DNA from: a virus
Lineage: Duplodnaviria; Caudoviricetes
Length of the DNA stretch: 64,000 nucleotides
IMG/VR virus record: IMGVR_UViG_3300037067_003053
Location: 57,381 to 121,380 of that record
Reading direction: 5' to 3' (one strand)
Made by a program: the position numbers and the translations under genes. Position 1 is the first letter of the stretch. Every line of letters starts with the position of its first letter. This document shows positions 26,708 through 62,870 of the stretch, piece after piece. The notes under the pieces are model-generated. The model had not been told where the DNA came from. It ran no database searches and saw nothing but the letters and a program-made list of their open reading frames with translations.

Positions 26708-28249
26708 TTATTTTAATCTTCCTAATGATTGATATAGTTTAGTATTGTTTTTTTTAACGTAATCCATAAATACGTTCCATAAAAACCCTTTTCTTTTATT
26801 TGTAAAATCTAATATAAAAGATGATTTACTATGTAATTTAAAAAACTCTATTAAACTATTTGTGAATCTGATATAGTTCATAAATTTTTCATATTCAATA
26901 TCTCCATTAAATACTCTAATTTCAATGGTATTTTTATTTTGAAGATTAATACAAGAATGCCGGTCTATTGCCTCTCTATTTCGTAATCCTCTTATAATGT
27001 TACCCGCTTCTATTCTATGACAAAATTCATCTACTTTATCTAAGTTTTTTCTATTACTAAATTCTATAATTTTATCAAAATAATTATAAAAAAATGTTAA
27101 TAATTTATAAAGAAAATTATTTTCTCGTTCTTTTTTATTCATATCTTTAAATTGGTTTTTATCAATATGAATATGAATTCCACATAATTCATTACCATCT
27201 ATATAAACATATTCTTCTAACCATTTTAATAATTCTCTAATAATAAATTCTTTTCTTATAAAATTATAGGTCATTGGATGTGTGACAATTTCAAATCCGT
27301 TGCCTATACTTCTATCAAATTTTAAATAGAATACATTATTAAATTCATTTGGAAATTTTTGAGATAATTTATGTGCCAAAGAACCTCTGTCCAATTTTTT
27401 AGAAGTAACTTCGATTTCTAATCCAAAAAACGGAGAATTTTTTAAATCTTTTATTGTACTTAAAAATTTTGGTTCCGGTTTATAATTATAATCATTTACA
27501 AAATGTTTAAATTTACAATTGTTACACAATATATGACCATCTACTTTTTCATATTTATCTCGTTTACTAAAATAGCCACACAATTCACATTTATCAAATA
27601 AACTATTTGAACATGGAACACAATATAAATCACCATCTATTTCGCGTATATAACTGCGTAAAATAATTTTTTTACAATTACTACATATTCTGGTTTCAAC
27701 TACGGCACAATCTTTACAAAGATTTACATTTTTTATATTTGTACTGCCGTAAACTTTTATTGTATTTTCTGTATAGAAATATGATTTACATGCATCGCAT
27801 CTTGTAATGTTATCGGAAGTTTTTATGCAATCGGTACACCATAATTCATATTCTTTTATCAATCTTTTAGATTTAAAAACTTTACATAACTTTTCTGAAA
27901 AAATATATTTTCCACATTTATCGCATTTATGATAATAATTATCAAAACAATTTTCACATATATATTCGCCTATTTTGGAATGGGCTTTTTCCATATATTT
28001 TTCTTCATATGTATTACCACAATGCGGACATTTTATAACTTTAAGAGTAGTAATACATTTACTACATACTTGTTTGGTTGTTTTTTTATTAAAATGAACC
28101 GTTGTTGCTTGCCTTTTAAATTTAAATTTTCCACAACAATCACATTTATAATAATGTATATCAAAACAAGTTTTACAATAATTACCACTCGGTCTTTTTA
28201 TTATTTCGGATTCTTCAAAATTCTTTTCACATGAAACACATTTTATCAT
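26708..28249 (-). CDS. Putative amidoligase (COOH-NH2 ligase) with N-terminal Zn-ribbon array
   Basis: Many CxxC pairs in residues 1-250; FGLEIEV, DRSI..GFEIVTHP, CGIHIH, R..CINL, TIEIRVF. Confidence 0.88.
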   Translation of the reverse strand: MIKCVSCEKNFEESEIIKRPSGNYCKTCFDIHYYKCDCCGKFKFKRQATTVHFNKKTTKQVCSKCITTLKVIKCPHCGNTYEEKYMEKAHSKIGEYICENCFDNYYHKCDKCGKYIFSEKLCKVFKSKRLIKEYELWCTDCIKTSDNITRCDACKSYFYTENTIKVYGSTNIKNVNLCKDCAVVETRICSNCKKIILRSYIREIDGDLYCVPCSNSLFDKCELCGYFSKRDKYEKVDGHILCNNCKFKHFVNDYNYKPEPKFLSTIKDLKNSPFFGLEIEVTSKKLDRGSLAHKLSQKFPNEFNNVFYLKFDRSIGNGFEIVTHPMTYNFIRKEFIIRELLKWLEEYVYIDGNELCGIHIHIDKNQFKDMNKKERENNFLYKLLTFFYNYFDKIIEFSNRKNLDKVDEFCHRIEAGNIIRGLRNREAIDRHSCINLQNKNTIEIRVFNGDIEYEKFMNYIRFTNSLIEFFKLHSKSSFILDFTNKRKGFLWNVFMDYVKKNNTKLYQSLGRLK

Positions 28250-31324: not shown

Positions 31325-32152
31325 TTATTCTTCTTTTAATACGGGATGATACATATATTTTCTTAATGCTTCATTTGGAACGTCAAATAATATTTTATTA
31401 TTGTTTTCAAAATAATTATCAAATAAATAATCAAAACCATTTGCAAATAATTCTGCGGTATATGAACTATTTATAGATAAGGCGGTATTTATTTCTAATA
31501 AATATGAAATATTATTTTCATCAATTATAATATCTGCACCACCAAAATCTAATCCAACCATATTCATGGCTTGTATTGCCAATAATCCTGATTTTCTTGG
31601 CCAATCTTTCCAACGAATATTTTCAAATGTAGAACCTTGGATATGATTCCATGCAATGGATTCTTTATCTTCTGCTATCTTTTCACTTATAGCCAATATT
31701 CTATTGGACATAATATAAACCCTAATTTCCCTTACTTTTTTAATATATTCAGAAATATAAAATTTATCCAAAGTATTAAACCTTCGTAATTCATCCATTG
31801 TATTAATAAAAAATAAATTAAAACCCCCAAAATGATGAAGAGGTCTAATAATTACTGGAAATTTATCTACCTCATTTCTTTGTGTACAATACCATGTTTT
31901 TGGACAAGATAATTCATTTTCTACACACATTTTTCTAAATTTATATTTATTGGACGCCGTAATAATGGCATCAGATTCATTAATTGTGATTCCTTTACAT
32001 GGGTATTCTTGTACATTTCCAAATCTAACTAAAATATCCGGATTTTTGATTCGTCTGCTACCATTTGAAATAAAAATTTCATTGACTAAATTTTCAGAAA
32101 CACTATTAATGGTTTCTTTAGAAAATCCTCTATTTCTTAAAAATAAAATCAT
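31325..32152 (-). CDS. ATP-grasp ligase (RimK/phiEco32-like)
   Basis: ASNK, FPVIIRP..H.GG, YISEYI...REIRV, WNH..G, GLDFGGADI, LEINTA. Confidence 0.9.
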   Translation of the reverse strand: MILFLRNRGFSKETINSVSENLVNEIFISNGSRRIKNPDILVRFGNVQEYPCKGITINESDAIITASNKYKFRKMCVENELSCPKTWYCTQRNEVDKFPVIIRPLHHFGGFNLFFINTMDELRRFNTLDKFYISEYIKKVREIRVYIMSNRILAISEKIAEDKESIAWNHIQGSTFENIRWKDWPRKSGLLAIQAMNMVGLDFGGADIIIDENNISYLLEINTALSINSSYTAELFANGFDYLFDNYFENNNKILFDVPNEALRKYMYHPVLKEE

Positions 32153-32168: not shown

Positions 32169-33047
32169 TCATTTTAATTTCCATTCTTTTTCAAATTCAA
32201 ATTCTTTATTTAAAACATTATTTAAAGAATTTTTGGTTATATCACTTAAATATTCATAAACCACATGATTAATTATAGTTAATGCTGATATTTTATCGCC
32301 ATCATTTATAATGCGACAAATCTCGTTTTGCCCTTTACATTCCTCTATTAATTGATTGTCTTTTTTATCTTTAACAATTTCAAGACAATCTCCAACCATA
32401 TTATAAATTAACTCTACTAATTTTGGAGATTTTAACCAAAAATTAGATAATACCCTATATTCTATACCATAATCTGTAGGTCTATGACATCCTGCTTTAC
32501 CATAAAGTTTTTTTCTATCCATAGATTCTTTTGAAGAATCTAAAATAATAGATGAAATTCCTAAAATACAATCCATAGTTCTCACAGTTTGTATTTTTCC
32601 TTCCATTTCCAATAAAAAAGGATATTCATCTAAATTTCCAACATGAACATGGGCTCCACAGCTTCTTAAATTTGTAGTTGGTTTGGAGGGCATGTTCATA
32701 CTTATTGTCCAAGCATTAAAATCCGGATCACATCCAAACTTTTTTGCTTCTTCATGGAATAAATATTTTTTCTCAAAAACATGTGAAGATTTTGGTATAA
32801 TAGAAAATCCATTTGGAATATTTTTTAATACCTCTTTATAAGTATTTTCAATATTACAAATAAATTCCTTTAAATCAATCGCAGGTTGGGTTGCAAATTC
32901 TAATGCCACATTATCAAACGATAACTTCGATCCATTATTGAGATTCTGTGGATTGTGTTTTGTCCCCGCAATATAAGGAATTGCTGAAACTATTTTTTTA
33001 CCATCATGTAAAAAAAACTCAGGGTCTGTTCCTATTGTAAATCTCAT
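32169..33047 (-). CDS. phiEco32-like COOH-NH2 ligase type 2 (copy 1)
   Basis: IGTDPEFF, GTK.NP, DNVALEF, FGCDPDFNAW, RSCGAHVHVG, R..LYGKAG..R...YGIEYRVLSNFW; start placed at the ATG after GGAGG. Confidence 0.92.
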   Translation of the reverse strand: MRFTIGTDPEFFLHDGKKIVSAIPYIAGTKHNPQNLNNGSKLSFDNVALEFATQPAIDLKEFICNIENTYKEVLKNIPNGFSIIPKSSHVFEKKYLFHEEAKKFGCDPDFNAWTISMNMPSKPTTNLRSCGAHVHVGNLDEYPFLLEMEGKIQTVRTMDCILGISSIILDSSKESMDRKKLYGKAGCHRPTDYGIEYRVLSNFWLKSPKLVELIYNMVGDCLEIVKDKKDNQLIEECKGQNEICRIINDGDKISALTIINHVVYEYLSDITKNSLNNVLNKEFEFEKEWKLK

Positions 33048-33064
33048 TTTACCTCCAAAATATC

Positions 33065-33850
33065 CTATATCTTTCCTTCCCATACTATTTTACCATTTTC
33101 CCCATGTAATCTCCATATCTTACCATCAAAAGAAGGAACCAATCCCTTCTCCCGTAATTTTATTGCAGAAGAAAAATCATATTTATATTTAATATTGAAA
33201 AATGATGAAATATAAACCCAGACAGAATCCCTGACAGAAACCCTGACATAATCCTCGACAGAATCCATGATAGAATCCCCGACAGAATCCCTGATAGAAT
33301 CCCTGACAGAATACCAGACAGAATCCCTGATAGAATCCCTGACATAATCCTCGACAGAAACCCTGATAGAATCCCTGACAGAATCCATGATAGAATCCCT
33401 GATAGAATCCCTGACAGAATCCATGATAGAATCCCCGACAGAATCCCTGATAGAATACCCGATAGAAGTCCTAACAGAATTCCATTTCTTCAATAATTTA
33501 ATATCCCCTTCAGATATTAAATTATTATGTAAATTAAATGGGTTGATTATAGGTTTTATTATTAACTCTGGTACAATAGTTTTGAAATCTAAAGATTTAC
33601 AAAACTTTTCTATTTTCTTAGAATCATCCACAGTATTTAATTGGTCAATAATAAATTTCTTTGTCAGTGGATTGTATTCATATTTATTAAGTTTATCCTC
33701 TTTCTCCCCTTTAAATCCATAGTAATCTGCTATGGAGGTATGGGAGTCTGTCTCATATTTTAACTTACCTTTCATTATTTTCTTTCTGATAACAGAATCA
33801 AAATAATAAGGTTTATTACCATCCGATACTAAACTAAAAAAGTTACACAT
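33065..33850 (-). CDS. DSV[RW] tetrapeptide-repeat protein, paralogue 1 (22 units)
   Basis: MCNFFSLVSDG N-domain, 12-nt VNTR, GLVPSFDGK.WRLHG C-domain. Confidence 0.85.
   Translation of the reverse strand: MCNFFSLVSDGNKPYYFDSVIRKKIMKGKLKYETDSHTSIADYYGFKGEKEDKLNKYEYNPLTKKFIIDQLNTVDDSKKIEKFCKSLDFKTIVPELIIKPIINPFNLHNNLISEGDIKLLKKWNSVRTSIGYSIRDSVGDSIMDSVRDSIRDSIMDSVRDSIRVSVEDYVRDSIRDSVWYSVRDSIRDSVGDSIMDSVEDYVRVSVRDSVWVYISSFFNIKYKYDFSSAIKLREKGLVPSFDGKIWRLHGENGKIVWEGKI
33218..33481 (-). repeat. 12-nt tandem repeat x22 (consensus GATTCTGTCAGG)
   Basis: Read directly from the sequence. Confidence 0.95.
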
Positions 33851-34940
33851 TATTTACTCCTTAATTTAATTATTTATTTGATAAATATGTTAGGACAATC
33901 TAAATTTTCCGTCTTTTCTTAATTGATTCCACCAATCAGATGGCATAGAAAGACTTTGAATAGATTCTCGTTTTATTTCTTTTATATCTCCCATTTTACC
34001 ACAACATTTACACATTTCTTGATTATAAGAAACTTTATCTGCCGCAGACCTTATACCTTTGCCCGGCCATTTATATTGACATATAGAAACTATATTATAT
34101 GTATGACCAAATCTTTGACATTTTTGATCCGGATTATACCATTCTTTAAATATTCTAATTATTTTATTAAAAAAGTGAATCTTTTTTGTCTTTAGTACAT
34201 TATTCATAATTTACTCCTTAGATAATTCTTTACCAATTAGGAAATTTTAATTGTTCTTGCCACATTTCAACAGTACAACATTTTTTACTAACTAATTCTC
34301 CAAAACATGTTAAATCCGATCTTATATAAACCTCATTATGTTTTGTAAAACAGTTTATTAATGGATTTGTAATTAAAGATAATGTGCCTTTTTTACTATA
34401 TTCTTTTAAATAATCGCGCAATCTAAATGCAACCATTAAATTACATTTATTATCAAATAATTTATTTTGAGATATTTTTTGCATTTGCCGAATCATTTCA
34501 ATTTTAAAATTAAATATGGTTTTATTAAAGGTTTCATAGTCTTCAATATGGAGAACCCAATAAGTTTCTCCGTTCATTTTTAATTTTAAAAAATTATATC
34601 CTGTCATTATTTAATATTAATTTTTAGTTCAAACATAATTATTTTTTTAATTTTCTCGTGGCTTTTGAGTAATTAAAGAATGTTTCCCATACTTCTATAT
34701 GAAAATCTTTTGGTAATTCTTTAACCATATTTTCTATTGCATGTTTTTGACCTAAAACTTTACAATCAGAATCTTTTGGATTCTGATATGCTGTTCCAAC
34801 CGCCCATGGTTTTTCTTCTGAAACATCTACCATAAATAAATTTGCAGTTGTTTTTCTTACCATTTTATCTCCAAATTTAGCAGGAACCTTTGTCGAATGA
34901 AATTTTAAATACATCATAATTTACTCCTTGTTTGAATTGT

Positions 34941-35471
34941 TTATTTGATAAACTTATTTAAAATATTTTTATAAAATAGAACGTCTGAATCACGTGAAGT
35001 TGAATGAGATATTCCTACTAATTGAATTTTTTTATTTACATATTTTTTATAATATTTAAATTTTATAGATAAATTTATTTTTGCTTGTAATGATTTTTCA
35101 TCATGAAATATAAAATATCTTTGATAAATTTCCTTTTCAACATAATCTTTACAATTAATTGTAAATTTTCTTCCAACCATTACAGTTTTTGCTTCATAAT
35201 CCATCCAAAACTTATTTAAGCAATATTCTATTATAGGAAGACCAAGATAAATTGTTTTACTTATTTTTCTATTTGTTCCAAAATCATAAATCTTACATTT
35301 CATTCCCAATGCTAACCACATAAGTAAATTGTTATCCAAATCGGAAAATAATTTATACCAATTTTTACGTTCAAGTGTGGTTGATTGAATTCTAATAAAA
35401 TTTATTTTATTCTTTGGTATATGCGGTATTTGTTCTATACCGTTTGTAAGATTAATAAAATATTTAACCAT
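34941..35471 (-). CDS. Conserved-looking phage hypothetical protein (FINLTNGIE...FIRIQST)
   Basis: 176-aa ORF with enzyme-like motifs; function unknown. Confidence 0.6.
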   Translation of the reverse strand: MVKYFINLTNGIEQIPHIPKNKINFIRIQSTTLERKNWYKLFSDLDNNLLMWLALGMKCKIYDFGTNRKISKTIYLGLPIIEYCLNKFWMDYEAKTVMVGRKFTINCKDYVEKEIYQRYFIFHDEKSLQAKINLSIKFKYYKKYVNKKIQLVGISHSTSRDSDVLFYKNILNKFIK

Positions 35472-36309
35472 TATTTAATTTCTATTTTATATTTTTTCAT
35501 AATATCATTTATATTTTTTTTAATTCGTATTGAATCTGATTTTTTAATGGTTAAAAAATCATCATATAATCCAAATTTATTTCGTGTCATTTTTGTTAAA
35601 GTGGTTAATTTTGGTTCACTTTCTTCTAAACAAAACTGTTCATTACCAGATTCTCCGGTAAATTTATTTTTATTTGATTTTAATTTCTTAATTATTTTTA
35701 ATCTTGGAAAAACCAATAAAATAGGTGGATTTAATAATCGTTTTATTTCCTCTTTTCTATTAATTTTATGAGAGGTATCTGGATATTTATCTTCTATAAT
35801 AGATTGTAACATTTTACAGCATTCTTTAGATAAATCATGTTGGTTTAGATTATCTCTTTCCTGTTCAACCATTATAACTCTTTTCTAATAATATTAGATT
35901 TTCAAACTCTTTAAGCAACTTTTCTGTTATTTTTCCAGCAAAGATTAAATCACGAATTTCTTCCATTCGTTTTTGAATTTCTTCTAAAGATTTCATATGT
36001 TTACTTTGGTGGCGATAAATCCTTCATTATATCCTTCATTATATCCGTCATTATAGGCCTCTGCAATTACTGCCATAAAGGATATTAATAAATCGTCTTC
36101 CTTGTGTTCAAATGTATCATCCATTTGATTTTTAAGTTTAATTGCAATATTTGCTCTTCTTGCAACTTCTTCAATACTTAATTTCATTTTTATTTCCTTT
36201 TGTTATCAATAATTATAAATAATATTCAAATATAGAATGTTTTATTAAATAAAGAAATAAAATAATAACAAATGTTCCAAATATAGGTAAAAATATTTAT
36301 TCATATTAT

Positions 36310-36576
36310 TTAATATTGACTGGAAAAATATTTACCTCTACGAAATACCTTTGAATTATAAATACATTTTATCCTACAACCAATTATTTTTTCGTAACCT
36401 ATTTCTATGCCAGATATTAGAACATATCTTTTGGCCCTTTCTTCCGGAGTACTATGTGGCATAATTTTATCAATTAAAGCATGGGCTTTATCAATTCCAG
36501 AATCGTCATCACCAAAATTGTAGACCCGCCCTAATAATATGTCTATTAATATCAAATCTGTTTCTTGTCCGAGCAT
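36310..36576 (-). CDS. Hypothetical protein (true start likely 36576)
   Basis: AAGGAAAGGA RBS before ATG at 36576; the longer ORF call overlaps tRNA-Tyr. Confidence 0.6.
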   Translation of the reverse strand: MLGQETDLILIDILLGRVYNFGDDDSGIDKAHALIDKIMPHSTPEERAKRYVLISGIEIGYEKIIGCRIKCIYNSKVFRRGKYFSSQY

Positions 36577-36613
36577 GATATATGTTCCTTTCCTTTTGTT
36601 ATCAATTTCCTTG

Positions 36614-36693
36614 TGCGTTGAAGAGGATTTGAACCTGCTTTGATGATTAAACGGATTTACAGTCCGCTCCCTTACCAATCGGGCTATCAACGC
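36614..36693 (-). tRNA. tRNA-Tyr(GTA)
   Basis: GCGTTGA/TCAACGC acceptor; GCGGA-CT-GTA-AA-TCCGT; long variable region; imperfect T stem. Confidence 0.82.
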
Positions 36694-36698
36694 ATTTT

Positions 36699-36900
36699 GT
36701 TAAAGTCTCGGTATAGAATCAAACTATACATTATTATTTTTTAATAAAAATAATTTGTTAATTTTGTTGTGAATCACTTGGGTATAGCCCAAGAGTTGCT
36801 CAAATAGGAGTAAATCATACAGACATAACCGCTTGGATATAACACAAAAATTAGATTATTTTTAAATAATTTTTCTATCATTGAAATACGAAACTTTAAC
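36699..36900 (-). ncRNA. tRNA-like RNA (~200 nt) with a long hairpin replacing the anticodon loop
   Basis: 12-bp closing stem GTTAAAGTTTCG/CGAGACTTTAAC; D arm TTTC-AATGATA-GAAA; T arm GTATAG-TTTGATT-CTATAC; internal stems AAAAATAAT/ATTATTTTT and CTTGGG/CCCAAG. Confidence 0.65.
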
Positions 36901-37002
36901 ACGAAAAACACACACATAATATCTTTAATTATATAATATTATTTTAGTATATTAAATAATTAAATTTTTAACTCAAATTAAGTTTTTTCACTTTCCACTC
37001 CT

Positions 37003-38469
37003 TTATTGTTCGTTTACCCATTCAATTACTTTATTTTTTATTGTTAATAATAGTTTATCTTCCATTGTGCGAATAGACGCCCAATAAATATAAGGTATTC
37101 CTATATAATATTTATAATTTATTGACAATTTTTCATTTATAAAACCATCAATATCCAAATTATTAAAATATCCATCTGGGCAAGATAAAAATAAAATAAC
37201 AAATGGATTTTTTGATACTACCCCTAAAAGATTTTTATATAAGATTCCTTTTATATTAGAATCAAAGCATCCATCATATTTTATAATTAAATTATTTTCT
37301 TTATATCCATTAACCCAATATTTAAAAATATTATCAGAGTATAGTGTTTCTTTTTTAAACTCTTCTAATATTTTTAAATCATGATCGTTTAATCCACAAT
37401 ATTCTTTATATTCTTCTTTTGTTGGTCTTGACAATGGGTTTGTATAATAAACAATTTTAATATTCTTAATATAAAAATTATCTGCTAAATTTTTAGCAAT
37501 TTTGATCCATAAATAATAATATTGTGGTTTTTTATAAATCATAGCAGGAGGTGTTCTATATTCAAATCCCCAGTTTTTTCTTTCTGAAGATGATAATCTT
37601 CTATATTGACCTCTTTTTTCTCCACTTTTATCTATTGTATAAAATCCAATATAAAAATCCAATATTTTAACAAATTCATCATTACGTCCCACATTTCCAA
37701 AATGTATATGACCCCCAAGAGCAACATAATTACCGGCCACAGATATACCCTGTACTTGTTTTGATGCTTCTGTTATTAATCCCTTTAAATTTTTAACGGC
37801 ACTTTTTATAGTTGTGGCATATTTTGGTCTAAATTCTCCGGTACATGCTGCCCCATCACATCCAATTTCTCTATCAGAACCAGTATTAAATACTGTGTTG
37901 GCCGGAACAAATTCATCATTTTCAATAATTTCAAATTCCGGATCAGCACCAATCGTAATTACTTTCTTTATTTTAATACGTTTTTTATTTTTTGAAAAAG
38001 CATCGTTCATAAAACTAATAAGAAATTCTACACCATCGACACTATGGGTATAATCTTTTAAAAACAATATATTTTTTACACCAAAAAATTCTTTGAAATA
38101 ATAACCCAATTTAATTGTAAAATTCTCTCCTCTACTAAGTATATAGCAAGTATTAAAAGATTGATTATTATTTTGAATATATCTACCTAAAGCATTAAAA
38201 ATTGGTCCCTCATCAAGACAAGATGAGGAAATAAGTTTATCATATTTTTTAATTAAATTTTCATCATTTAAAATAATTTCTTTATAATCTAATTTTTTTA
38301 ATAAATCAGGTGAAATACATTTATCTGAATATAAATATATTGTATTATTTTTAAATATAACAGTGATGCCTGAATGAGCATAAATATTTTCAAATCCATA
38401 GTATACTGGAGGATTATTAATTTTATCTAAAAATATGGATGTGGATTCTGTGGGATATATATCTTTCAT
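37003..38469 (-). CDS. phiEco32-like COOH-NH2 ligase (copy 2) with N- and C-terminal extensions
   Basis: TIGADPEFE, IGCDG...GEFRP, GGHIHFG, GFEYRTPP. Confidence 0.85.
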   Translation of the reverse strand: MKDIYPTESTSIFLDKINNPPVYYGFENIYAHSGITVIFKNNTIYLYSDKCISPDLLKKLDYKEIILNDENLIKKYDKLISSSCLDEGPIFNALGRYIQNNNQSFNTCYILSRGENFTIKLGYYFKEFFGVKNILFLKDYTHSVDGVEFLISFMNDAFSKNKKRIKIKKVITIGADPEFEIIENDEFVPANTVFNTGSDREIGCDGAACTGEFRPKYATTIKSAVKNLKGLITEASKQVQGISVAGNYVALGGHIHFGNVGRNDEFVKILDFYIGFYTIDKSGEKRGQYRRLSSSERKNWGFEYRTPPAMIYKKPQYYYLWIKIAKNLADNFYIKNIKIVYYTNPLSRPTKEEYKEYCGLNDHDLKILEEFKKETLYSDNIFKYWVNGYKENNLIIKYDGCFDSNIKGILYKNLLGVVSKNPFVILFLSCPDGYFNNLDIDGFINEKLSINYKYYIGIPYIYWASIRTMEDKLLLTIKNKVIEWVNEQ

Positions 38470-38762
38470 TCCATTTCCTCTATATCTTGAAGTTTTTTTA
38501 ATTCATCATTTATAAATGTGTACATTGGAATATTTTTTAATAATGCTCCATATTTTGAAGCCAAACAAATATGTTTTGTTGTAGTTTGTGATATTCTATC
38601 TTTTCCAATATAAGGAAAAACAAACTTTATTCCCCACGCCGTATATCCTATTTTTAATTTAAAAGAATATAAATTTTTACCATCGGTGGAAATATTTTTA
38701 CCAATTGCGGGAACATTGGATGACCAACATACCACAACCAAATTATTATCTAATGTTTTCAT
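38466..38762 (-). CDS. Small protein with C-terminal EEME tag, overlapping the ligase 2 start (ATGA)
   Basis: Ends INDELKKLQDIEEME. Confidence 0.8.
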   Translation of the reverse strand: MKTLDNNLVVVCWSSNVPAIGKNISTDGKNLYSFKLKIGYTAWGIKFVFPYIGKDRISQTTTKHICLASKYGALLKNIPMYTFINDELKKLQDIEEME

Positions 38763-38856
38763 ATTTCTTTACAATTTAATATTAAATTCATTACTTCCAT
38801 AATGAATTACCGTTTTTGAAAAATTCATTTAAAATCCTATTTACAATTTTTACAAT

Positions 38857-38901
38857 AAAAAAGGGCGAATCTCAGAATATTTCTATTCTAAAACTCGCCC
38901 T
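38857..38901 (-). terminator. Rho-independent terminator
   Basis: AGGGCGAGTTTTAGAATA-GAAA-TATTCTGAGATTCGCCCT followed by a T run. Confidence 0.85.
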
Positions 38902-38977
38902 GTGGTACACTTGGAGGATGTACTAAATTCCCAAATGTTTTACGTTGCGAAAAGAAATTTTTTAAAAATACTTTATC

Positions 38978-39715
38978 CTATATCTTACCTTCCCATACTA
39001 TTTTACCATTTTCTCCATGCAACCTCCATGTTTTACCATCAAAAGAAGGAACTAACCCCTTCTCCCATAATTTTATTACAGGAGAAAAATCATATTTATA
39101 TTTAATATTAAAAAATGATGAAATATAAGCCAAGACAGAATCCCAGACAGAATCCCTGACAGAATCCCTGACAGAAACCCAGACAGAATTCCTGACAGAA
39201 ACCCTGACAGAATCCCCGACAGAAACCCTGACAGAAACCCTGACAGAAGCCCTGACAGAATTCCTGACAGAAACCCAGACAGAATCCCTGACAGAATCCC
39301 AGACAGAATCCCAGACAGAATCCCTGACAGAATCCCCGACAGAAACCCACTCTTTTAATAATTTAATATCTTCTTCAGATATTAAATTATTATGTAAATT
39401 AAACGGGTTTATGATAGGTTTTATTATTAACTCTGGTACAATAGTTGTAAAATCTAAATTATCACAAAATTCTTTAATTTGTTTTGAATCATCCACAGTA
39501 TTTAATTGGTCAATAATAAATACTTTGGTAAGAGGATTATACTCATATTTATTTAATGAATCCTCTTTCTTCCCTTTAAATCCATAGTAATCTGCTATGG
39601 ATGTGTGGGAATCTTTCTCATATTTTAACTTACCTTTTATTATTTTCTTTCTGATAATAGAATCAAAGTAATAAGGTTTCTTTCCATCCGATACCAAACT
39701 AAAAAAGTTACACAT
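38978..39715 (-). CDS. DSV[RW] tetrapeptide-repeat protein, paralogue 2 (18 units)
   Basis: Near-identical N- and C-domains to paralogues 1 and 3. Confidence 0.85.
   Translation of the reverse strand: MCNFFSLVSDGKKPYYFDSIIRKKIIKGKLKYEKDSHTSIADYYGFKGKKEDSLNKYEYNPLTKVFIIDQLNTVDDSKQIKEFCDNLDFTTIVPELIIKPIINPFNLHNNLISEEDIKLLKEWVSVGDSVRDSVWDSVWDSVRDSVWVSVRNSVRASVRVSVRVSVGDSVRVSVRNSVWVSVRDSVRDSVWDSVLAYISSFFNIKYKYDFSPVIKLWEKGLVPSFDGKTWRLHGENGKIVWEGKI
39131..39346 (-). repeat. 12-nt tandem repeat x18
   Basis: Read directly from the sequence. Confidence 0.95.
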
Positions 39716-40910
39716 TATGCTCTCCTTAATTCATTGTCTATTAAAGAAACTACAATTTTCCTGCTTCCACTTCCACCAGTTTCAGTAATATCTCGTATTT
39801 TACACAATAATTGTTTTAAATCCGTCACCTGTTTTATAAGTGGATTTTCTTTATCTATTAATGTCCGCAATTCTTTTAGCATTTTTAACCGATGCATTTT
39901 ACCCAGTTCGCTTACCGGTTCATATTCTTCAAAAAATTTAATATCTTGAAGAATTTTCAATTGAGATTTTTCCATACTTACCTCTCTTTACTTTTAAAAA
40001 AGTTTTGATTTGTAATTCTCATATTCTATTTTTATTCCGCCCTGAGAAATTGCGGGTTATTTAATGAATTATATCTTTATTATTTTAATAAATTTATAAT
40101 TATTATCGGTATCCGCCACCAACAATTCTAAACCAAAAGGTTTTAATAGTTCATCTATATCCTCAAACAAATCTAATGAGGGATAAATTTCCATATCAAT
40201 AGCCATAAATGGCCAATATTTTACCTTACCAGCTTCTTTATATGTTATTTTTTTCATTATAAATAATACCCGCTTTCAAATTTTAATGAATTATATTATA
40301 TTTATCTTTTATTTTGCACATATTAATAATAATTTTATAGAATTTTTTATATCTATCAGTACCCAAATAATTATTGCTCTTAAAAACTATTTTGCCCACG
40401 GAGTCACAGCAATATCCCAAACATGTTTCACTTCTCCATATTCTCGGGATTCTACAACATTTTTTTCTATTATTAAAAAATCCAAATGTTTTTGTAAATT
40501 TATATTTCTTTTTTAAATATAAAAGTCGTTCCTTGTCTTCAAAGAAATATGAATTGATATTAAAATACCCATTTCGCTCACCACATTTAGAACAACATCC
40601 ACATTGTTTGGATTTAAAACTTTCGCATTTATTATGAGTTTTGTTTAAAAGTTCTTTTTTGATGAAAGTATATTTATACTCACTTTCATGTTTTTTGCTC
40701 AAAGGATATTCAAAATCTATATCACATCCATTATCATCTTCATAAATATAACGATATTTTATTGGGGCACAAATACAATCCGAACAATATTTTTTATTTA
40801 TCGAATCAAAAATATTACCTATTTTTTTAGATAATAAATTTAATTCTTTTAAATCTTCTGGTTCTATTTTTATTAATTTATCCATACATACTCCAAATAT
40901 TTTTAAATTG

Positions 40911-40982
40911 TTGGGATAATTAGACTCGAACTAATGACCTCCCGCTTATAAGGCGGATGCTCTACCACTGAGCTATATCCCA
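40911..40982 (-). tRNA. tRNA-Ile(TAT)
   Basis: TGGGATA/TATCCCA; GCTC-AGTGGTA-GAGC; TCCGC-CT-TAT-AA-GCGGG; ATTAG-TTCGAGT-CTAAT; discriminator A. Confidence 0.92.
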
Positions 40983-40991
40983 ATTTGAGAA

Positions 40992-41327
40992 TTATTTCTT
41001 TTCTTTTAATGATTCGATCATTTCGTCCAATTTTAAATTGGTCATTTCCAACATTTTGTCTGAAATTTTTTGGATTTTTTTATTATTTACAATCTTGGGC
41101 AAGACATAGATTATTTCTGCTTCCTTTGTTGATGGAATCATAGCCCCAATTATTATACTAATAATTCCAATTACTAATATAATTTTTGAAGGTTTTTTAC
41201 CAACACCATCAGACAACTGAACAAACAACCATACAACAAATATAATTACGGATATTACGCCAGTAGCCAAAAAAAGTCCAGATAGAACATCCAATTTTTG
41301 CCACAAATAAATTTGAAACCAAGTCAT
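40992..41327 (-). CDS. Two-TM membrane protein
   Basis: Two hydrophobic segments followed by IPSTKE. Confidence 0.7.
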   Translation of the reverse strand: MTWFQIYLWQKLDVLSGLFLATGVISVIIFVVWLFVQLSDGVGKKPSKIILVIGIISIIIGAMIPSTKEAEIIYVLPKIVNNKKIQKISDKMLEMTNLKLDEMIESLKEKK

Positions 41328-41564
41328 TTTTTCCTTCCTTCTCTAATTTTATTTATTGCGTTTGTAAAGGCTTTTTTCTTATCCGCCTTTATTTTCTTTT
41401 TAAGAAATTTACGAGCCTTTCTTTCCATTTTTACCTTATCGGATACCACCTTTTTAGGTAATTCCGGTAAAGTATATGGAATAAATTTCTCGTGATTGTG
41501 TTCTACTTCTCCCATAATTTCCTCCAAGTTATTTGTGTTTTAATTCTAAAACTCGCCCCTTATC

Positions 41565-42209
41565 CTATATCTTCCCTTTCCATACTATTTTACCATTTTC
41601 CCCATGTAATCTCCATATCTTACCATCAAAAGAAGGAACCAATCCCTTCTCCCATAATTTTATTGCAGAAGAAAAATCATATTTATATTTAATATTGAAA
41701 AATGATGAAATATAAACCCAGACAGAATCCCTGACAGAAACCCAGACAGAATTCCTGACAGAATCCCTGACAGAATCCCAGACAGAATCCCTGACAGAAT
41801 CCCAGACAGAATCCCTGACAGAATCCCAGACAGAATCCCACTCTTTTAATAATTTAATATCCTGCTTGGTAACTTCCAATGTTTTAATATCTTTAAATGG
41901 GTTGACAATCGGTTTTATTATTAACTCTGGTACAATGGTTGTAAAATCTAAATTATCACAAAATTCTTTAATTTGTTTTGAATCATCCACTGTATTTAAT
42001 TGGTCAATAATAAATACCTTTATTAGAGGATTATACTCATATTTATTTAATGAATCCTCTTTCTTCCCTTTAAATCCATAGTAATCTGCTATGGAGGTAT
42101 GGGAGTCCTGTTCATATTTTAACTCACCTTTTATTATTTTCTTTCTGATAACAGAATCAAAATAATAAGGTTTCTTACCATCCGATACCAAACTAAAAAA
42201 GTTACACAT
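41565..42209 (-). CDS. DSV[RW] tetrapeptide-repeat protein, paralogue 3 (10 units)
   Basis: Start placed at ATG 42209 after GGAGG; same domains as paralogues 1 and 2. Confidence 0.85.
   Translation of the reverse strand: MCNFFSLVSDGKKPYYFDSVIRKKIIKGELKYEQDSHTSIADYYGFKGKKEDSLNKYEYNPLIKVFIIDQLNTVDDSKQIKEFCDNLDFTTIVPELIIKPIVNPFKDIKTLEVTKQDIKLLKEWDSVWDSVRDSVWDSVRDSVWDSVRDSVRNSVWVSVRDSVWVYISSFFNIKYKYDFSSAIKLWEKGLVPSFDGKIWRLHGENGKIVWKGKI
41718..41837 (-). repeat. 12-nt tandem repeat x10
   Basis: Read directly from the sequence. Confidence 0.95.
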
Positions 42210-44028
42210 TATTTCCTCCAAGTTATTTGTTTTTTAATATTCCATCAAGAATTTCTTTCATTTCTTTTTTAAAAATATATACACCCGTTTTAAACAGTAT
42301 TTTTTCATATGCATATATTTTCTGTTTTTGTGTTAAACTTCCAAATTTTTCACAAAGATTATTTTTACTATGTAATGGGCATTTTCCATGCTTGCATTCA
42401 CGCACAGAATATACTCTACAAAAACCAGAAACATCTTCTGGTAATTCGTTGCCAAATTCTCGATCTTTTTTTGCGGGCATTTTTCTATTTATATTAATTG
42501 CCCTTAAAACCTTTAATCTTTTATACCTTTTAAACCACATAATTTTCTTACATTCTCTTTTTTTGTTGTTTTGTATGTTTTGCCCATGCAATTATTGTTA
42601 ATGAAAAACCAAGAAATATCCAAAATAGAACAGCACCAAAATTATCTATTCCTTTTAAATATTTTATATAAGAAGCGATTCCCAATCCATATAAAGGTAT
42701 AGAACCCAATAAATAACCAATTCCTTTCATACGTCCTCCATTATTATAATTACGAAGAGCATCTAATTGTTTTTCTGTTAAAACAATTCTATCTCCTTCA
42801 TTATATTCATATCTTTGTCCGCATTTGGGGCATTCATTATTACTATAAGATTCATAATGGTTTGGATTAATCCATCCTTTTTTCATGGAAGATAGTCTTC
42901 CATAATTAGCCCCACATATAATACAAAATGGACCCATTTCTTTATAAGTTACACCATTTATTATTTTATTACTCATACATCCTCCATTATTTCATTCAAT
43001 TTATTAATATCTTCCAAAGATAAATCATAATCGGTTAAACCAATTTCAACCAATTTATTACCATTGAATATTAATTCATCTGGTAATTCTTTATACGAAT
43101 GACCAATTTCAATAACCAAATATTGTTTTAAATAAACTTTATTAATCTTGAAATCTTTATCAAGAATATATTTTTCAACAATATTTTTAATTATTTCATT
43201 CATAATAGATTAAAAAAATAGGATAAAACTACCAATTATTTATTGATAATTCTATCCATATTTTTATTATTAATAAAGCCAGATATTTCCCAAGAATTTT
43301 GTTTATTTTTTCTATAAACCCTTATTCCACCAGTTTCTTTTACATACATAAAATAACCCAATAAAGTGTTTTTAAAACTGGTTTTTCCAGTTAAATATGT
43401 TAATTCCATAGGATCAAGCATTTATTTTCCTTTAATAAAATTATTATATAAATATTCATATAGCCAGTGGAGCCCACACCAAATCGCCGAATTGAGAATC
43501 CAGATTTTTGCCGTTGATTCCGTTTCTAAAAAGATTGCAATAACACAACACGTTAAATATGCCATATGTAAAAAACCACTAAAATATTTCATATTATTTC
43601 CTCGATAATTTAATTATATCACTTGAACATAATTTTTTAATCTTGGGAACAGTCATCGAAAAAAGATTTTTCCTCAATGTACTATTATTAACCCCCAATG
43701 AAGATGCATAATTACAACATCTTTCAATTGCTTTCCGTTTTTCATTTTCCATAAATTTAGTCATATATCCTCCAAAGTTTTATATTATTCCTTTAATTAA
43801 AACATCGTAACATAATAAAATTGAAAACGATTCAACTTTTTATAATTAGTAAGTGGTTACTTTAAATTTGCATATGCTACATAAATTTCGCCATCTTACT
43901 AACATTTCAAATAAGCCTTAGCCCCCTAATTGGATTCAATCCACGTTTTAGAACGGTTAGGGGTAATATAAAGGGATTAAACTTTACATATAATCTCCTT
44001 GGTTATTATTTAATTTCAAAAAACTTTC

Positions 44029-44160
44029 TGGGGCGCGGGAGATATTCCGGTTATTTTTGGCTTTTTCTTTTTCTTGATCGTTACCGGAAACGGCGCCCGT
44101 ATTACATACCATGGATTTTTTTGCACGGGCATTTCATGATCGAACTCCACAGGCGCCCCA
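44029..44160 (-). ncRNA. Putative structured ncRNA
   Basis: GC island closed by TGGGGCGC/GCGCCCCA, inner stems GGAG/CTCC, GCCCGT/ACGGGC, TTCCGGT/ACCGGAA; promoter-like TTTACT-17-TGTATT at 44210-44238. Confidence 0.5.
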
Positions 44161-44981
44161 TATTCTTAATTCAAATTTATTGCCATATCTATATCCATTA
44201 CAGATATATAATACATTTTATAAAATTTACAAAGTAAACCAAAATAGATTTTCATTACTCCCCCACAATTCTTTTAATACATTTATCTATATTTTTATCC
44301 ATATAAAAGGTATCAAATTCAGTATTTCTTATTTCATCCGCTGTATTTGGAAATAAGAAATATAGTGCATTAAAAAATGCCTGCCCATCCCGTTGTTTAT
44401 AAACGGTTTTATATTTAGTTTGTAATTCCTGGACTTTAATTAGTTCTTCATTGGTGAGTTTATTTTTCATCTATTTTCAATATTTTTGGTTTTATTTCTT
44501 TACCGTCTTTTAAGACAATCTTTTCCAATATACAGTTATTGGAATACGATATAAATTTGTTGGAAATGTAACCGTTTAAAATCGTTTCTCCTAAATTACA
44601 CGTTTCTCCTGTCTCCATGTCACTATTTGCACACGGACAATCTTCACAACTAAAGACTTTTTTCATAATATCCTCCTATTTAAAATAATTATAATAGTTT
44701 TTACCACTATTATTTTGGGATTTATTATCTATTTTATTATCTTTTAATTCAGTTTTAATATTCTCATGAGATTTTACACGAATTTCTTTTAAAAGATTCT
44801 TATTTGTACTATAAATCTGCTTGGTATTATTCATAAAATTACCCACTTTATTTATTAAACCTACTTATCAAAATTTTATATATCGCCACGGGGGATTTTG
44901 AATACTTTCTCGTCGTGAAAATCAAAACTTTAATAAATTAGGCACTTTTTAAAAAAGCATCAAAAAACAGTTAAAATTTGC

Positions 44982-45013
44982 CCCGTCCGCCGATCTGCGA
45001 GCGCGCGGACGGG
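44982..45013. terminator. GC-rich hairpin, probable terminator
   Basis: CCCGTCCGC...GCGGACGGG downstream of ORF 45037-45258. Confidence 0.55.
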
Positions 45014-45467
45014 AGGAAAAAATACCATCTTAATTATTAAAAAAGATCCCCGCCCCAAAATTCTTCATTCTTTTCGGGATCGGTAATATCCACAAAATCC
45101 GAAACATATGGATAAGGTGGTTCTGTACGTAATCCTGCCGCTTTTATTTTTTCAACGGCATCTTCAAAACTTTCGGCTTCCACTATTTCACTTTTATATT
45201 CAAGGGAAATTGTCCGATTAACGGTGTACCCAACTTCAAATTTCATTTTATCCTCCAAGATAAAAAATTATATCTCTTTTGATATACCAGCAGATATTTA
45301 TTCTGGTTTTACCATTTCAAATATTACTTATTAAATATTAATCAAACTATATTTTAAAAAACCTAAAAAACATTTCCATAAAAACACGATTTTCAAATGT
45401 ATTACTTTATAAGTACTCTATTTATCAAATACTTATAAAGTAATATACTTAAATTTCAATAAACAAA

Positions 45468-45498
45468 ACAAGGGCGGAAATTGAATTTCCGCCCTTGT
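45468..45498 (-). terminator. Rho-independent terminator after 45519-46037
   Basis: ACAAGGGCGGAAA-loop-TTTCCGCCCTTGT followed by TTTGTTT. Confidence 0.85.
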
Positions 45499-45518
45499 GG
45501 TTTCCAGGTTGATCGGGC

Positions 45519-46037
45519 TTATTTTGTGACAGTCTGCAACACTTTGCGCAAAGTCGTGACCTCGTCGATTTCGGCAACTTTGGCCGTGTACTCGATAACA
45601 TCCGCTTGCAAGTTTTCAATAACCCGTGCTTGATTTGTTTTAAGTTCGTCGATTTGAGCCTTGATAAATTCAGCACGTTTTACGTTGTCACTGAACCACT
45701 TGCCCGCATAAAGAATCAGCAAACCACGTGCAGTCATCGTTCCGGCCTTGATAGATTCGATTGACGTTTTAATTTTCTTGATTGTTGAAAGTAGCCCCTT
45801 GCGTTGACTATCTGAATAATCCGATTTCTTCAGATAGTCCTTAAGCAGGCCGGCGGCATAGGTTTCGGCATCAGCGGGGTCAATCATTCTCAGCGTTTCC
45901 AAAACGTTTAAGTCTTGCTTGCTTGCCCGTAACGCCAGGAATTTGTCAACCATTTCCATTGTTTTGGCTTTTTTCTGTTCTGCTGTCAATTCAGGTGTGC
46001 CAGCCTCAACCTTTGCTTTGTTTACTTCGTTTCCCAT
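45519..46037 (-). CDS. First gene of the left arm; helical/coiled-coil hypothetical protein with GC-richer codons
   Basis: AAGGAG RBS, own terminator, many C/G-ending codons. Confidence 0.8.
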   Translation of the reverse strand: MGNEVNKAKVEAGTPELTAEQKKAKTMEMVDKFLALRASKQDLNVLETLRMIDPADAETYAAGLLKDYLKKSDYSDSQRKGLLSTIKKIKTSIESIKAGTMTARGLLILYAGKWFSDNVKRAEFIKAQIDELKTNQARVIENLQADVIEYTAKVAEIDEVTTLRKVLQTVTK

Positions 46038-46533
46038 TTTGTACTCCTTTGTTTGTGTTTGTTTACTTGTTTTATACGTCTATTCACGGGATTAAATGGA
46101 CATATTTAAAAAATTAATACAACGGTTTTAAAGCCGTTTAATAGTCCGATCAACTCGCAATTTCAATTTAGCGTTTTCCTAAAAACACTCAAAATCTTGC
46201 AACCCAGGTACCAGTCCGAAAACGTAAAATCCACTCGCAAGTTTTGTCGAAAACCTGACCGATCACACCTCGGGCGCAACGTAAAAAAGTCTAATAATCA
46301 AATAACGAGTGAAATTTACAGTACAGTGAACGACTATACAAGTAAAATCGTAAAGTGGCTAAATTTATGTTTATAAAGTGTTTTAAGTGAATGAGTTATA
46401 TATGTAAAGTAACCCAGGTTGATAATGTATAAAGATAAATGGAAATGATAATAATGATTAAATAAATAAAGATTTGAAATTTTGAAATGAAGGGAAATAG
46501 CACTTTTCAGCCTCTACCCCCATCCACTCCCTA

Positions 46534-46700
46534 CGTCTGAAATGTTTCTATTATATTATATTTTCTTAGTATCTGTTCACGCGTCTGAAATGTTTCTATT
46601 ATATTTTCTTAGTATAACTCTATTATGTATTATCGTTTACTATATCAACCCAATATCTTTACTATTTAGTCCCTACATCTGAAATGTTCCTTATTATATA
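46534..46700 (+). repeat. Iteron-like direct repeats in the strand-switch region
   Basis: C(G/A)TCTGAAATGTT(T/C)C..TTATA at 46534, 46582 and 46676. Confidence 0.8.
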
Positions 46701-46961
46701 TACCAATCCAAAATATCTTTATTATATTATACGTTTCAATATAATATAAATACCTATAATGTCTACTATATTACTTTATGGTATATACGACTCAAATGTC
46801 TTTAATATATTATTCTTAATATATATAATCACTTTTATTATCTACTATATTGCTTTTAAGACGTTTTATTTATATTGACATACATTATACATCTATATGT
46901 ATTATAATCTTACTCCGTTAGGCACGCATTGGTCATTATTAAATATTTGTTGTTTAATGAA

Positions 46962-47002
46962 AGATTTCTCTTGACATTTGCATTAAAATGTTGTATATTA
47001 TA
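46962..47002 (+). promoter_or_regulatory. sigma70-type promoter copy 5
   Basis: AGATTTCTC-TTGACA-17nt-TATATT. Confidence 0.85.
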
Positions 47003-47563
47003 AGCGTGTATTATGAAAGGATTAGATATGAAGACATTTGATTTAGGTAATGATTTAAGACTTGAGATTAAGAATGATAACATTATGTTTATTTCTAATG
47101 GACGTATATATGGTCAGATTACTAAAGACCCCCTTAAAGTTGGTAAGAAATATGATGGTGTTAATAATCAACTACCTTTAAAATATAGACCTACTAAGGA
47201 TAGTTGGATTAATTGGGATAAACTCTATAATAAGGTTACTGAGAAATCTTATCAAGAATTAAGGGATGAAGCATTTAAAAGAAATATGGTTGAAATAGTT
47301 GAAGAAAAACCAAAAGAACCTTCTTCTTTTGAAATGTGGTTACCTCTTATAGCGGTTGGTGTTGGTTTAATTATTATGATGCTGTTATAATTTAAGGAAA
47401 ATATGAGATTGGATATTCAAAAACTTAGAAAAGACATGGAAGAATATTCTAAAAAAATTACTTCTTCTGTGGCGGCATCAAGAGAATTTTTGGTTAAAAC
47501 TGGTATTTTTAATGCAGAAGGACTTCTTCAAGAACCTTATAAAAATTTAAATAAAGGAGAATA

Positions 47564-47980
47564 ATGAATATAATATTTATAATTTGTATGTTTCTTTGGT
47601 GTTTAAGTAGAGGTGCTACTGAGGGTTATAAATGGTTGCATGATAATAAATGGATGCATAGAAATAAACTTATCAGTCCTATTTATCATAAAGGATACCA
47701 TGCCGTGATGGATTATCATGCGTGGAGAACATTGGAAGCATTATCTATATTCGGTATGTTACTTACATATAACAATATCTTTGTTTTAATTGGTAGTTAT
47801 ATGTTTGGAATTTATACTATATATGAACGCGCATTAAATTATGTATGTTATTTTGGACGCATGCTTGCTAAGAAACCAATTTGGAATTGTTTGTGGTTTA
47901 AAATTGAACAATCATTATATCGAGAAATGGCGATTGCTTTGATGGGATTAGGAATAATGATATATGGCATGTTTAAATAA
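47564..47980 (+). CDS. Membrane protein
   Basis: AAGGAG RBS; several hydrophobic segments. Confidence 0.65.
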   Translation: MNIIFIICMFLWCLSRGATEGYKWLHDNKWMHRNKLISPIYHKGYHAVMDYHAWRTLEALSIFGMLLTYNNIFVLIGSYMFGIYTIYERALNYVCYFGRMLAKKPIWNCLWFKIEQSLYREMAIALMGLGIMIYGMFK

Positions 47981-48188
47981 TTTTTATTGAAAGATTTATA
48001 AAATGAAACAAACTGATTTGTCTTATAAAATTCTTAGATATATTGGGTGGTTATTTACATCACCTGCGTTTATTTTAATATATTTAATTGGTCTTTTTAT
48101 TGGTATAATCATAGGTTTAGTGGTATTTTCTATTATGATTATATTTTATATGATTTTATTGTTTTTATTCATAATAGAATGTTTGAAA

Positions 48189-60146: not shown

Positions 60147-60162
60147 TTGGAGGTGAAAATAT

Positions 60163-60627
60163 ATGTCTACATCGTCTAATGTTGTTATTAAAGAATATGA
60201 TGAAAGATGCGTTGTTAAATTACCAGTAGCCTCTGCAACAGTATTGGCCGCGGGTGATTTGATTGTTGCCACTGCGGATACTGCTACTACGTTAAAAGCG
60301 GCCGCCCTTTCTGCATCGTCTTTATATAATACTTTTGTAGGTGTTGCACTCGAAGGTTCTGAGAGTGGACAAGTGGAATATATCAGCGTTGCAACTCGTG
60401 CGAGAATTGCAATTAAGGTTGTTTCTACGAGTGCTGCGGCGCTTGTTGGAGATGCATTTTATTATAGTGCAGGTGCAAACGGTACAGATTGGCAAGTAAC
60501 CAAATGTACTTCCGGCGTTAGTGGAATTACGTGGGCTCTTGAGGCGGTTGCCGCAGGAAGTTCTGGTGAATTTCTAATTGATACTCATGTTATGAAATCG
60601 GGCTTTGAGTTCGATAAAATTACTTAA
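60163..60627 (+). CDS. Capsid decoration/cement protein 1
   Basis: Between scaffold and MCP; GDLI, FVGVALE. Confidence 0.75.
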   Translation: MSTSSNVVIKEYDERCVVKLPVASATVLAAGDLIVATADTATTLKAAALSASSLYNTFVGVALEGSESGQVEYISVATRARIAIKVVSTSAAALVGDAFYYSAGANGTDWQVTKCTSGVSGITWALEAVAAGSSGEFLIDTHVMKSGFEFDKIT

Positions 60628-60648
60628 TTAATTTGGAGGTGGATATAA

Positions 60649-61110
60649 ATGTCAAGTACATATTCTAATGTTGTTATAAGAGATTATGACCCGATTAGCG
60701 TAATCAAACTTCCCGTTGTTTCTGCGACTGTTATTGCAAAAGGGGATTTAATTGATGCGAGTGCAGATACTGCTACAACTCTTGTTGCGGCTTGTCATGC
60801 GGGTGATAATTCGTTGTTTTTTGGTGTTGCTTTGGAAGGTTCTGAAAGCGGAGAAGTTAAAGATATTTCTATTGCAACTATTGCAAAAGTTAATATTAAA
60901 GTTGTTTCTGGAAGTACAGATGCTCTTCCGGGAGATGCTTTTAAATATAGTGCCGGTGCTAATGGTACTGCGTGGCAGGTTACAAAAGCCACATCAGAGG
61001 GCATCATGTGGGCACTTGAACCGGTTTTGGATACTGCGGAAGGTGTTTTCCTTATTAATTCCCATGCTCTTGCTGGTGGATTTATATGGGATACTTGTAC
61101 CGAAGGTTAA
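60649..61110 (+). CDS. Capsid decoration/cement protein 2 (tandem paralogue)
   Basis: Shares KLPV.SATV...GDLI.A.ADTATTL and YSAGANGT.WQVTK with protein 1. Confidence 0.75.
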   Translation: MSSTYSNVVIRDYDPISVIKLPVVSATVIAKGDLIDASADTATTLVAACHAGDNSLFFGVALEGSESGEVKDISIATIAKVNIKVVSGSTDALPGDAFKYSAGANGTAWQVTKATSEGIMWALEPVLDTAEGVFLINSHALAGGFIWDTCTEG

Positions 61111-61139
61111 TTAATTCTATAATTTGGAGGTTAATATAA

Positions 61140-62324: not shown

Positions 62325-62338
62325 TTTAAGTTACTAAT

Positions 62339-62366
62339 GGGGAGGAGGGGGATTCTACTCCTCCCC
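62339..62366 (+). terminator. Stem-loop after the MCP gene (no U tract on +)
   Basis: GGGGAGGAG...CTCCTCCCC. Confidence 0.55.
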
Positions 62367-62859: not shown

Positions 62860-62870
62860 CTAAAAAATAA

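Follow-up and report, generated by a model that had tools for sequence, protein, structure and literature searches.

The uncultured tailed-phage record IMGVR_UViG_3300037067_003053 (121,380 bp, estimated completeness ~64%) was analysed over its final 64 kb, which we call the window. On the minus strand of the window lie three paralogous genes (A, B and C), and each of them carries, in mid-gene and in frame within its open reading frame (ORF), an array of 12-nt repeats with the unit GAT-TCT-GTC-AGG. Tandem Repeats Finder placed the arrays at 33217-33480 (22.0 copies), 39134-39348 (17.9) and 41717-41840 (10.3), and a search of the whole record found these three gene copies only. Based on the ORFs and on arrays cut into codon-phased units, the genes and their parts were assigned as follows (window positions).

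33065..33850, minus strand: paralogue A, 261 aa, defined by its ORF and translation and by full-length homologues; N-terminal lobe 33482-33850, C-terminal lobe 33065-33217
33218..33481, minus strand: array A, 22 units of 12 nt, defined by Tandem Repeats Finder and the unit table
38978..39715, minus strand: paralogue B, 245 aa, defined by its ORF and an AlphaFold2 model
39131..39346, minus strand: array B, 18 units, mainly D/V/N/A - S - V - R/W/G
41565..42209, minus strand: paralogue C, 214 aa, with its start at the ATG that gives the Met-Cys of the family
41718..41837, minus strand: array C, 10 units, mostly DSVW alternating with DSVR

Paralogue A has its own Shine-Dalgarno site. The mechanical ORF of paralogue C begins 12 nt further upstream, with a TTG at 42221; the family consensus start is MCxFFS.

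The unit table (22 + 18 + 10 = 50 units) agrees with a preliminary description of this DNA, made from the sequence alone, which had reported three in-frame arrays of these sizes, third codon positions fixed except for a single GTT, and variation at unit positions 1, 2, 5, 7, 10 and 11, with adenine found at every one of them. Unit positions 3, 6 and 12 were invariant in 50 of 50 units, and position 9 was C in 49 of 50. The residues seen were D/V/N/A/Y/T, S/Y, V/I and R/W/G/M/E/L, as had been listed. The unit types DSIR and DSIM were exclusive to array A. It should be noted that the window by itself is suggestive only: it holds 11 distinct variant types (position and base), of which one falls at a third position against an expectation of one third (binomial estimate, P ~0.075), and the statistical weight of this count is modest because the units were copied from one another and so are not independent events. 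This count, together with duplicated multi-unit blocks in array A, is what speaks for neutral recent slippage, in which a few variant units would have been amplified recently and silent changes would be lacking by chance. Likewise, the presence of A at every variable position is weak evidence, with a chance of ~8% given two or three states per site, before the A+T-rich composition is taken into account.

The flanking domains of the same genes provide a calibration within the window. Third positions differ by 14-21% in the flanking domains of A, B and C, mostly silently, whereas array units of different paralogues differ by 0.9% at third positions, by 37% at position 2 and by 58% at position 10. 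Three array codons are rare in this phage, GTC accounting for 5% of Val, AGG for 10% of Arg and GGG for 9% of Gly codons, and the unit looks like frozen DNA rather than codon-adapted sequence.

The proteins belong to a large family with 3938 full-length homologues (~60% identity), which are metagenomic, nearly all unnamed and mostly viral. The shared architecture consists of ~120 N-terminal residues starting with Met-Cys, a tetrapeptide run [D/A/..]-S-V-[W/R/G] and ~50 C-terminal residues. An exhaustive search placed the N domain in 357 clusters at 50% identity; of the 150 clusters listed, nearly all are matched from protein residue 1 onwards, which suggests a role for the N-terminal cysteine. 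No match to the window proteins was found in Pfam, PHROGs, NCBIfam or PADLOC, and 118 family members yielded no consistent Pfam match. Megablast and tblastn searches of INPHARED revealed no near-identical DNA or protein in named phages, an exact-protein look-up of two window proteins gave no match on other contigs, and no paper was found in the literature on the repeat motifs, on DUF6745 or on phage cases of such repeat evolution. DUF6745 (PF20530) is found in three relatives (P0126, P0127 and P0137), where it is preceded by the Met-Cys N domain of the family and a short array of the same kind; the window proteins have instead the 50-residue C lobe without a Pfam match. An RLH-x-ENG motif is common to DUF6745 and the window C lobe, a weak similarity from a single comparison (E 0.023). 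In P0126 the units read D/A-Q-V-x, with Gln where Ser is usual. Many family genes are located at contig ends, and in two contigs the break falls within the array and the unit strings at the two ends overlap; L029 and L076, and L047 and L057, are the two ends of the same contigs, so that arrays act as assembly break points.

For comparison, 80 related viral loci were fetched, which yielded 74 non-identical arrays from other uncultured phages, with 6-48 units per array across the family. The unit consensus in all 74 arrays was [D/A/N/G/V/S]-S-V-[W/R/G]; its first and fourth residues are called x1 and x4 below. Silent codons vary between arrays (Ser TCG/AGC/TCC/TCA/TCT, Val GTC/GTG/GTT/GTA, Asp GAT/GAC) but are near-uniform inside one array. 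Unit positions 2 and 10 were mixed in almost all arrays, and mean within-array heterozygosity was 0.44 at position 2, 0.58 at position 10 and 0.03-0.07 at third positions. When edge units were trimmed, position 10 was variable in 71 of 71 arrays and third positions in 4-33%, depending on the position and the majority base. The proportions are stable across the family, with W, R and G at about 44, 34 and 22% of x4, and D and A at about 65 and 30% of x1. The excess of amino-acid-changing over silent variation, as first claimed for the window, is thus real and family-wide. Two positions exempt from homogenisation are a signature of concerted evolution; chance falls far short of explaining the pattern, which belongs to the family as a whole rather than to one phage. 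The 74 independent homologous arrays, taken with the calibration against the flanks, make the non-synonymous pattern compelling.

These data weigh heavily against neutral slippage, which predicts equal silent and x1/x4 diversity, while the two are ~10- to 20-fold apart. Seventy-four independent arrays with differing codon sets agree in their two hot positions, and the W, R and G unit classes are common to the entire family. We therefore regard neutral slippage as a very unlikely explanation.

The order of W/R/G and of D/A along the arrays showed no autocorrelation at lags of 1-10 units, and helical periodicity was accordingly rejected as the cause of the W/R/G mix. The x4 residue of a unit was independent of the x1 residue of the next, and a weak D-W association was seen within the unit.

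The preliminary description had also proposed A-directed mutagenesis in trans, as in a diversity-generating retroelement (DGR), where a reverse transcriptase (RT) copies an A-rich template and would randomise adenines into the arrays; it had named the RT and the template as the parts to be sought. In favour of a DGR are the restriction of variation to amino-acid-changing positions, A as a state at each of them, and the commonest family unit, GAT-TCG-GTC-AGG, which carries adenines at the two hot positions only. Neither part was found. The RT domain RVT_1 (PF00078) had no match at E <= 1 in the 121-kb record, and four related phage records, of which two are at least 90% complete, gave none at E <= 0.01; a remote RT copy, or one in the host, would be compatible with a record that is ~64% complete. 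A 24-mer search of the whole record for a template copy (<=6 mismatches) returned the three arrays only, and an A-substituted version of the array (<=5 mismatches) had no match in it.

More direct controls come from the arrays themselves. In eight cases arrays use TCA or GTA and so carry adenines at third positions; heterozygosity there was 0.063, against 0.39-0.64 at the hot positions. For example, in L019 (14 TCA and 14 GTA) and L085 (17 GTA) the adenines are as fixed as other third positions. A second control is given by position 10, where A and C both encode Arg, so that selection is blind to the choice and random mutagenesis would mix AGG with CGG. Both codons occurred together in 4 of the 65 arrays with at least two Arg units, while the random expectation was 37.8 and the minimum in 5000 shuffles was 28. 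Since AGG and CGG are rarely mixed, it is protein selection and not mutation supply that appears to maintain the W/R/G mix. The rarer x1 alleles Gly and Val likewise cluster by array. In addition, loci with >90% identical flanks allowed 10 comparisons, nearly all across different metagenomes. The arrays were identical in eight of them, and the other two, both against L032, differed by one shared point change outside the hot positions. Unit number was constant in all near-identical pairs. This constancy, and a 12-nt unit that stays in frame, also do not fit a contingency locus with a phase-variable tandem repeat.

It should be added that DGRs usually act on one variable region, which is C-terminal and has a C-type-lectin or Ig fold, and that a tandem helical array in mid-protein would be an unusual target. 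Based on the above results, and on identical arrays in two gene copies of one phage (see below), DGR-type diversification is rejected, and we give it next to no probability. According to the preliminary description, recent slippage of a few variants would be left if no RT or template existed and if third positions in homologous arrays changed at neutral rates. The first holds for the records searched and the second does not; because silent positions are not changing at neutral rates within arrays, such slippage is not the whole story.

Another site-directed mutator is unlikely as well. Hypermutation of unit bases 2 and 10 without a DGR, for example by a motif-directed enzyme, would account for hot positions that are identical across arrays, for the random-looking order of states and for the family-wide preference for the unit GAT-TCG-GTC-NGG. 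However, it does not account for AGG and CGG almost never occurring together or for the lineage-specific minor alleles of x1, which point to inherited unit types. It would also require A-to-C changes at position 2 and a preference for AGG over the transition-derived CGG, unlike a simple mutational spectrum, and arrays that are nevertheless stable between near-identical phages.

We also considered that the third positions might be fixed by a constraint on the DNA or RNA, such as an overlapping frame or a nucleic-acid motif, rather than by homogenisation. Mechanical ORFs in other frames do cross the arrays (33160-33345 and 39108-39350), but they end with the stop-free repeat, and a second frame would itself be changed by the variation at positions 2 and 10. 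These ORFs were judged mechanical, as the codon sets differ between arrays. The silent bases differ among arrays in the same way, so no specific base is needed, and this explanation is extremely improbable.

Exchange between paralogues is visible in the window and in other phages. Mutual homology of A, B and C extends from the Shine-Dalgarno site to just past the stop codon, and the three genes are mosaics of one another. The 131-kb phage contig L086 also has three copies (2264-3010, 7323-8069 and a diverged third at 11311-12042). The first two share one sequence over the first 728 of their 747 nt, counted from the start codon and including the whole array, whereas no relation is left between their flanks even at the base next to the gene; gene-sized conversion, or duplication in the manner of a cassette, would give such a picture. 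Other multi-copy phages are L026, with three tandem paralogues, and L027 and L032, with two each; in each of these three phages a single codon set is used by the paralogous arrays, although their genes differ in the flanks, and the silent-site contrast between array units and gene flanks is repeated in L026 and L027. The window and L026 paralogues have flanks only a few percent apart and arrays entirely different in unit number and order.

We suggest that concerted evolution of the 12-nt arrays, with selection keeping two residues per unit mixed, is the best explanation, and we consider it probable. Slipped-strand events or unequal recombination would duplicate and delete units in any register and so recombine positions within the unit, and paralogues in one genome would exchange sequence. 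As a result, silent positions would turn uniform inside a genome and drift between lineages. Slippage and conversion are thus the likely homogenising processes, which selection at the protein level, rather than targeted mutation, would oppose at x1 through unit base 2 (and 1) and at x4 through base 10 (and 11). In this way the classes of unit, TGG, AGG or CGG, and GGG, would be kept and the rest of the unit swept clean, and fast drift within a class such as R would leave arrays with AGG throughout or CGG throughout. Across the family AGG is in the majority although CGG is the transition neighbour of TGG, which indicates that the unit classes are old and inherited, not recreated.

To examine the likely form of the protein, AlphaFold2 models were built with 118 homologues. 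The model of paralogue B had a predicted local distance difference test score (pLDDT) of 87.6 and a predicted template modelling score (pTM) of 0.82, and that of P0102, a relative with five units, a pLDDT of 91.3. In the B model, N-terminal strands and helices to about residue 126 and the C-terminal 45-50 residues are confident; judging from the secondary-structure layout and pTM, they probably make up a compact base of two lobes. For the array, a helix-loop-helix arm of varying length is predicted, in line with the helical repeat claimed at the outset. Foldseek searches of the PDB with both models gave no match at E <= 0.001, and neither a BFVD fold search nor a PDB sequence profile search gave a match. 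VIA-align against 48,161 chains reached best Z scores of 4.0 and 3.5, mostly with helical hairpins, and the ESM Atlas returned unnamed viral clusters only, the N domain alone scoring 0.78, below the useful range. The absence of structural matches does not prove a new fold.

In the family alignment, R22, H37, D52, K56 and E58 are invariant and M1-C2 nearly invariant. The F-F ... Y-F ... R ... H ... E spacing, and mobility in gene-sized units, brought a GIY-YIG nuclease into consideration. At E <= 10, PF01541 matches only an unrelated gene, and GIY-YIG chains were not among the fold matches listed. The gene matched (G000:C1:9197-9454) lies in the same record outside the window and is probably of the homing-endonuclease type.

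Under concerted evolution with selection, the arm would be the surface that meets a variable, probably host, partner, and the three paralogues would be three versions of it. Accounting for the same data, the mixture of x1 and x4 may instead be a structural or compositional need (solubility, helix packing or kinks) under the same concerted evolution, with no recognition surface involved. The stable family-wide proportions of x4 and x1, the lack of positional order and the identical arrays in near-identical phages all agree with such a need. It agrees less well with paralogues in the window and in L026 that have near-alike flanks and carry wholly different arrays, which make the arm the main distinction between copies kept side by side. 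As an explanation of the whole we hold the structural need possible rather than probable; for the mixed composition as such, a recognition arm and a purely structural need appear about evenly balanced.

Several points weigh against an interaction arm maintained by selection. A plain compositional or structural need for a W/R/G and D/A mix would explain the data as well as diversification driven by a target. The confidence of the arm is moderate (pLDDT 64-82 in B, with a loop below 50 in P0102), and Gly occupies about one fifth of x4 positions, which is odd for long helices. Simple recent duplication of units predicts some autocorrelation along the arrays; its absence fits strong shuffling, selection against runs, or randomisation after duplication. 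The identical arrays of near-identical phages give no sign of a short-term ongoing arms race. Moreover, short-read assemblies can misplace unit order and number, as has been shown for fungal repeats (PMC12222747). This caveat covers arrays A (264 nt) and B (216 nt), and the position-specific pattern is unaffected by it.

Thus, of the helical surface under diversifying selection that the preliminary description proposed, selection for heterogeneity at two residues is retained as the best explanation, while a host-facing role is what we infer beyond it. Our reading is that these are putative host-interaction proteins, in which arm length and surface residues may differ between the copies that a phage keeps. 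A bolder version, which we regard as rather doubtful, is a programmable recognition arm with two specificity residues per unit, altered by slippage and paralogue exchange on a base of new fold, of which a phage would keep several versions for variable host targets. In that version, the conserved N-terminal Cys and the invariant His, Asp, Lys, Glu and Arg may be catalytic.

The genes surrounding the paralogues were also analysed. The window has a G+C content of ~25% and eight tRNA genes. Its minus strand includes replication genes (clamp loader, helicases and RNA ligase), and from ~48 kb the plus strand carries a head module with portal, head protease and major head protein. Near 47-48 kb (window ~44000-48000), a sign flip of the GC skew accompanies the switch of coding strand between the replication/accessory module and the head module. 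The G+C content rises to 0.38 in the final 4 kb (60001-64000), against ~0.25 elsewhere in the window. The eight tRNA sites are scattered through the early genes, with one at 40910-40982 and a tRNA-Ile (anticodon TAT) among them; the mechanical ORF 36310-36690, which overlaps a tRNA-Tyr, is unlikely to be a gene. Among the paralogues lie four amidoligase-type genes.

26708-28249, minus strand: amidoligase-type gene
31325-32152, minus strand: amidoligase-type gene
32169-33083, minus strand: amidoligase-type gene
37003-38469, minus strand: amidoligase-type gene

They comprise an amidoligase (phrog_2443), a RimK-like ATP-grasp protein and two phiEco32-like COOH-NH2 ligases, and the stop of paralogue A overlaps the start of a COOH-NH2 ligase gene. 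We found no support for the view that the adjacent amidoligases have the Met-Cys protein as their partner or substrate and abandoned it, since a tblastn search with 16 neighbouring window proteins (both COOH-NH2 ligases and the ATP-grasp protein included) found no relative in the 80 related loci and the association is therefore not recurrent there. Gene neighbourhoods are not conserved in the family. Elsewhere the genes stand in runs of small unnamed co-directional genes, and these contexts look like early or accessory regions.

To our knowledge, phages diversify their binding proteins by dedicated machinery (DGRs) or by module exchange. The arrays described here would add a third route, in a very large phage family with thousands of members and often several copies per genome, in which recombination would keep a minimal 12-nt repeat free of changes other than those at two residues per unit. 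They offer a clean and replicated natural example of the interplay between concerted evolution and selection, and they highlight an abundant phage protein, with a conserved N-terminal cysteine and a fold unmatched in searches, as an experimental target. In addition, repeat variation that is solely amino-acid-changing is not in itself evidence for a DGR, and silent adenines and the AGG/CGG alternative serve as simple controls. We consider this a known evolutionary regime in a new form, found in an abundant uncharacterised phage protein family; as far as we know, most descriptions of this regime concern fungal immune receptors and transcription activator-like effectors (TALEs).

Compared with the variable regions of DGRs, the arrays are similar in that variation in a phage protein is limited to the amino-acid-changing positions of selected codons. 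They differ in the lack of an RT or template in our searches, in showing no adenine specificity, in being invariant in near-identical genomes, and in their predicted form, where tandem helical units replace the C-terminal region of lectin fold. In TALE repeats, which are almost perfect at the DNA level, nearly all variation falls on two residues per unit, the repeat-variable diresidues, and recombination shuffles arrays of differing length; their units have 33-35 residues and read DNA bases one to one. The phage arrays share with them the two variable residues per unit and the variable length, and differ in the 4-residue unit and in showing no sign of nucleic-acid binding or of a code.

In fungi, NLR repeats with high internal conservation, namely the WD40, ANK and TPR repeats of Podospora het-d/het-e and relatives, undergo concerted evolution and paralogue exchange and have hypervariable sites under diversifying selection (PMC4986451, PMC12222747). 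The phage system is unlike these in that its unit has 4 residues (12 nt) instead of ~34-42, its array is predicted to be a helical arm, not a propeller or solenoid, its carrier is a virus, not a fungus, and near-identical phages carry identical arrays. It is like them in its near-identical DNA units, in exchange within and between paralogues, in variable unit number and in having few hypervariable codons. Three features that mark the fungal repeats are present here: silent sites are more alike in the units than in the rest of the gene (0.9% against 14-21%); repeat number varies (22, 18 and 10 units in the window, 6-48 in the family) along with exchange, seen in the mosaic paralogues and the copied gene of L086; and a few hypervariable codons hold an excess of amino-acid changes, as judged by heterozygosity and codon counts rather than by phylogenetic dN/dS. 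If the programmable arm were true, it would be the first viral counterpart of the repeat diversification known from fungal NLRs and TALEs, operating without a dedicated mutagenic enzyme.

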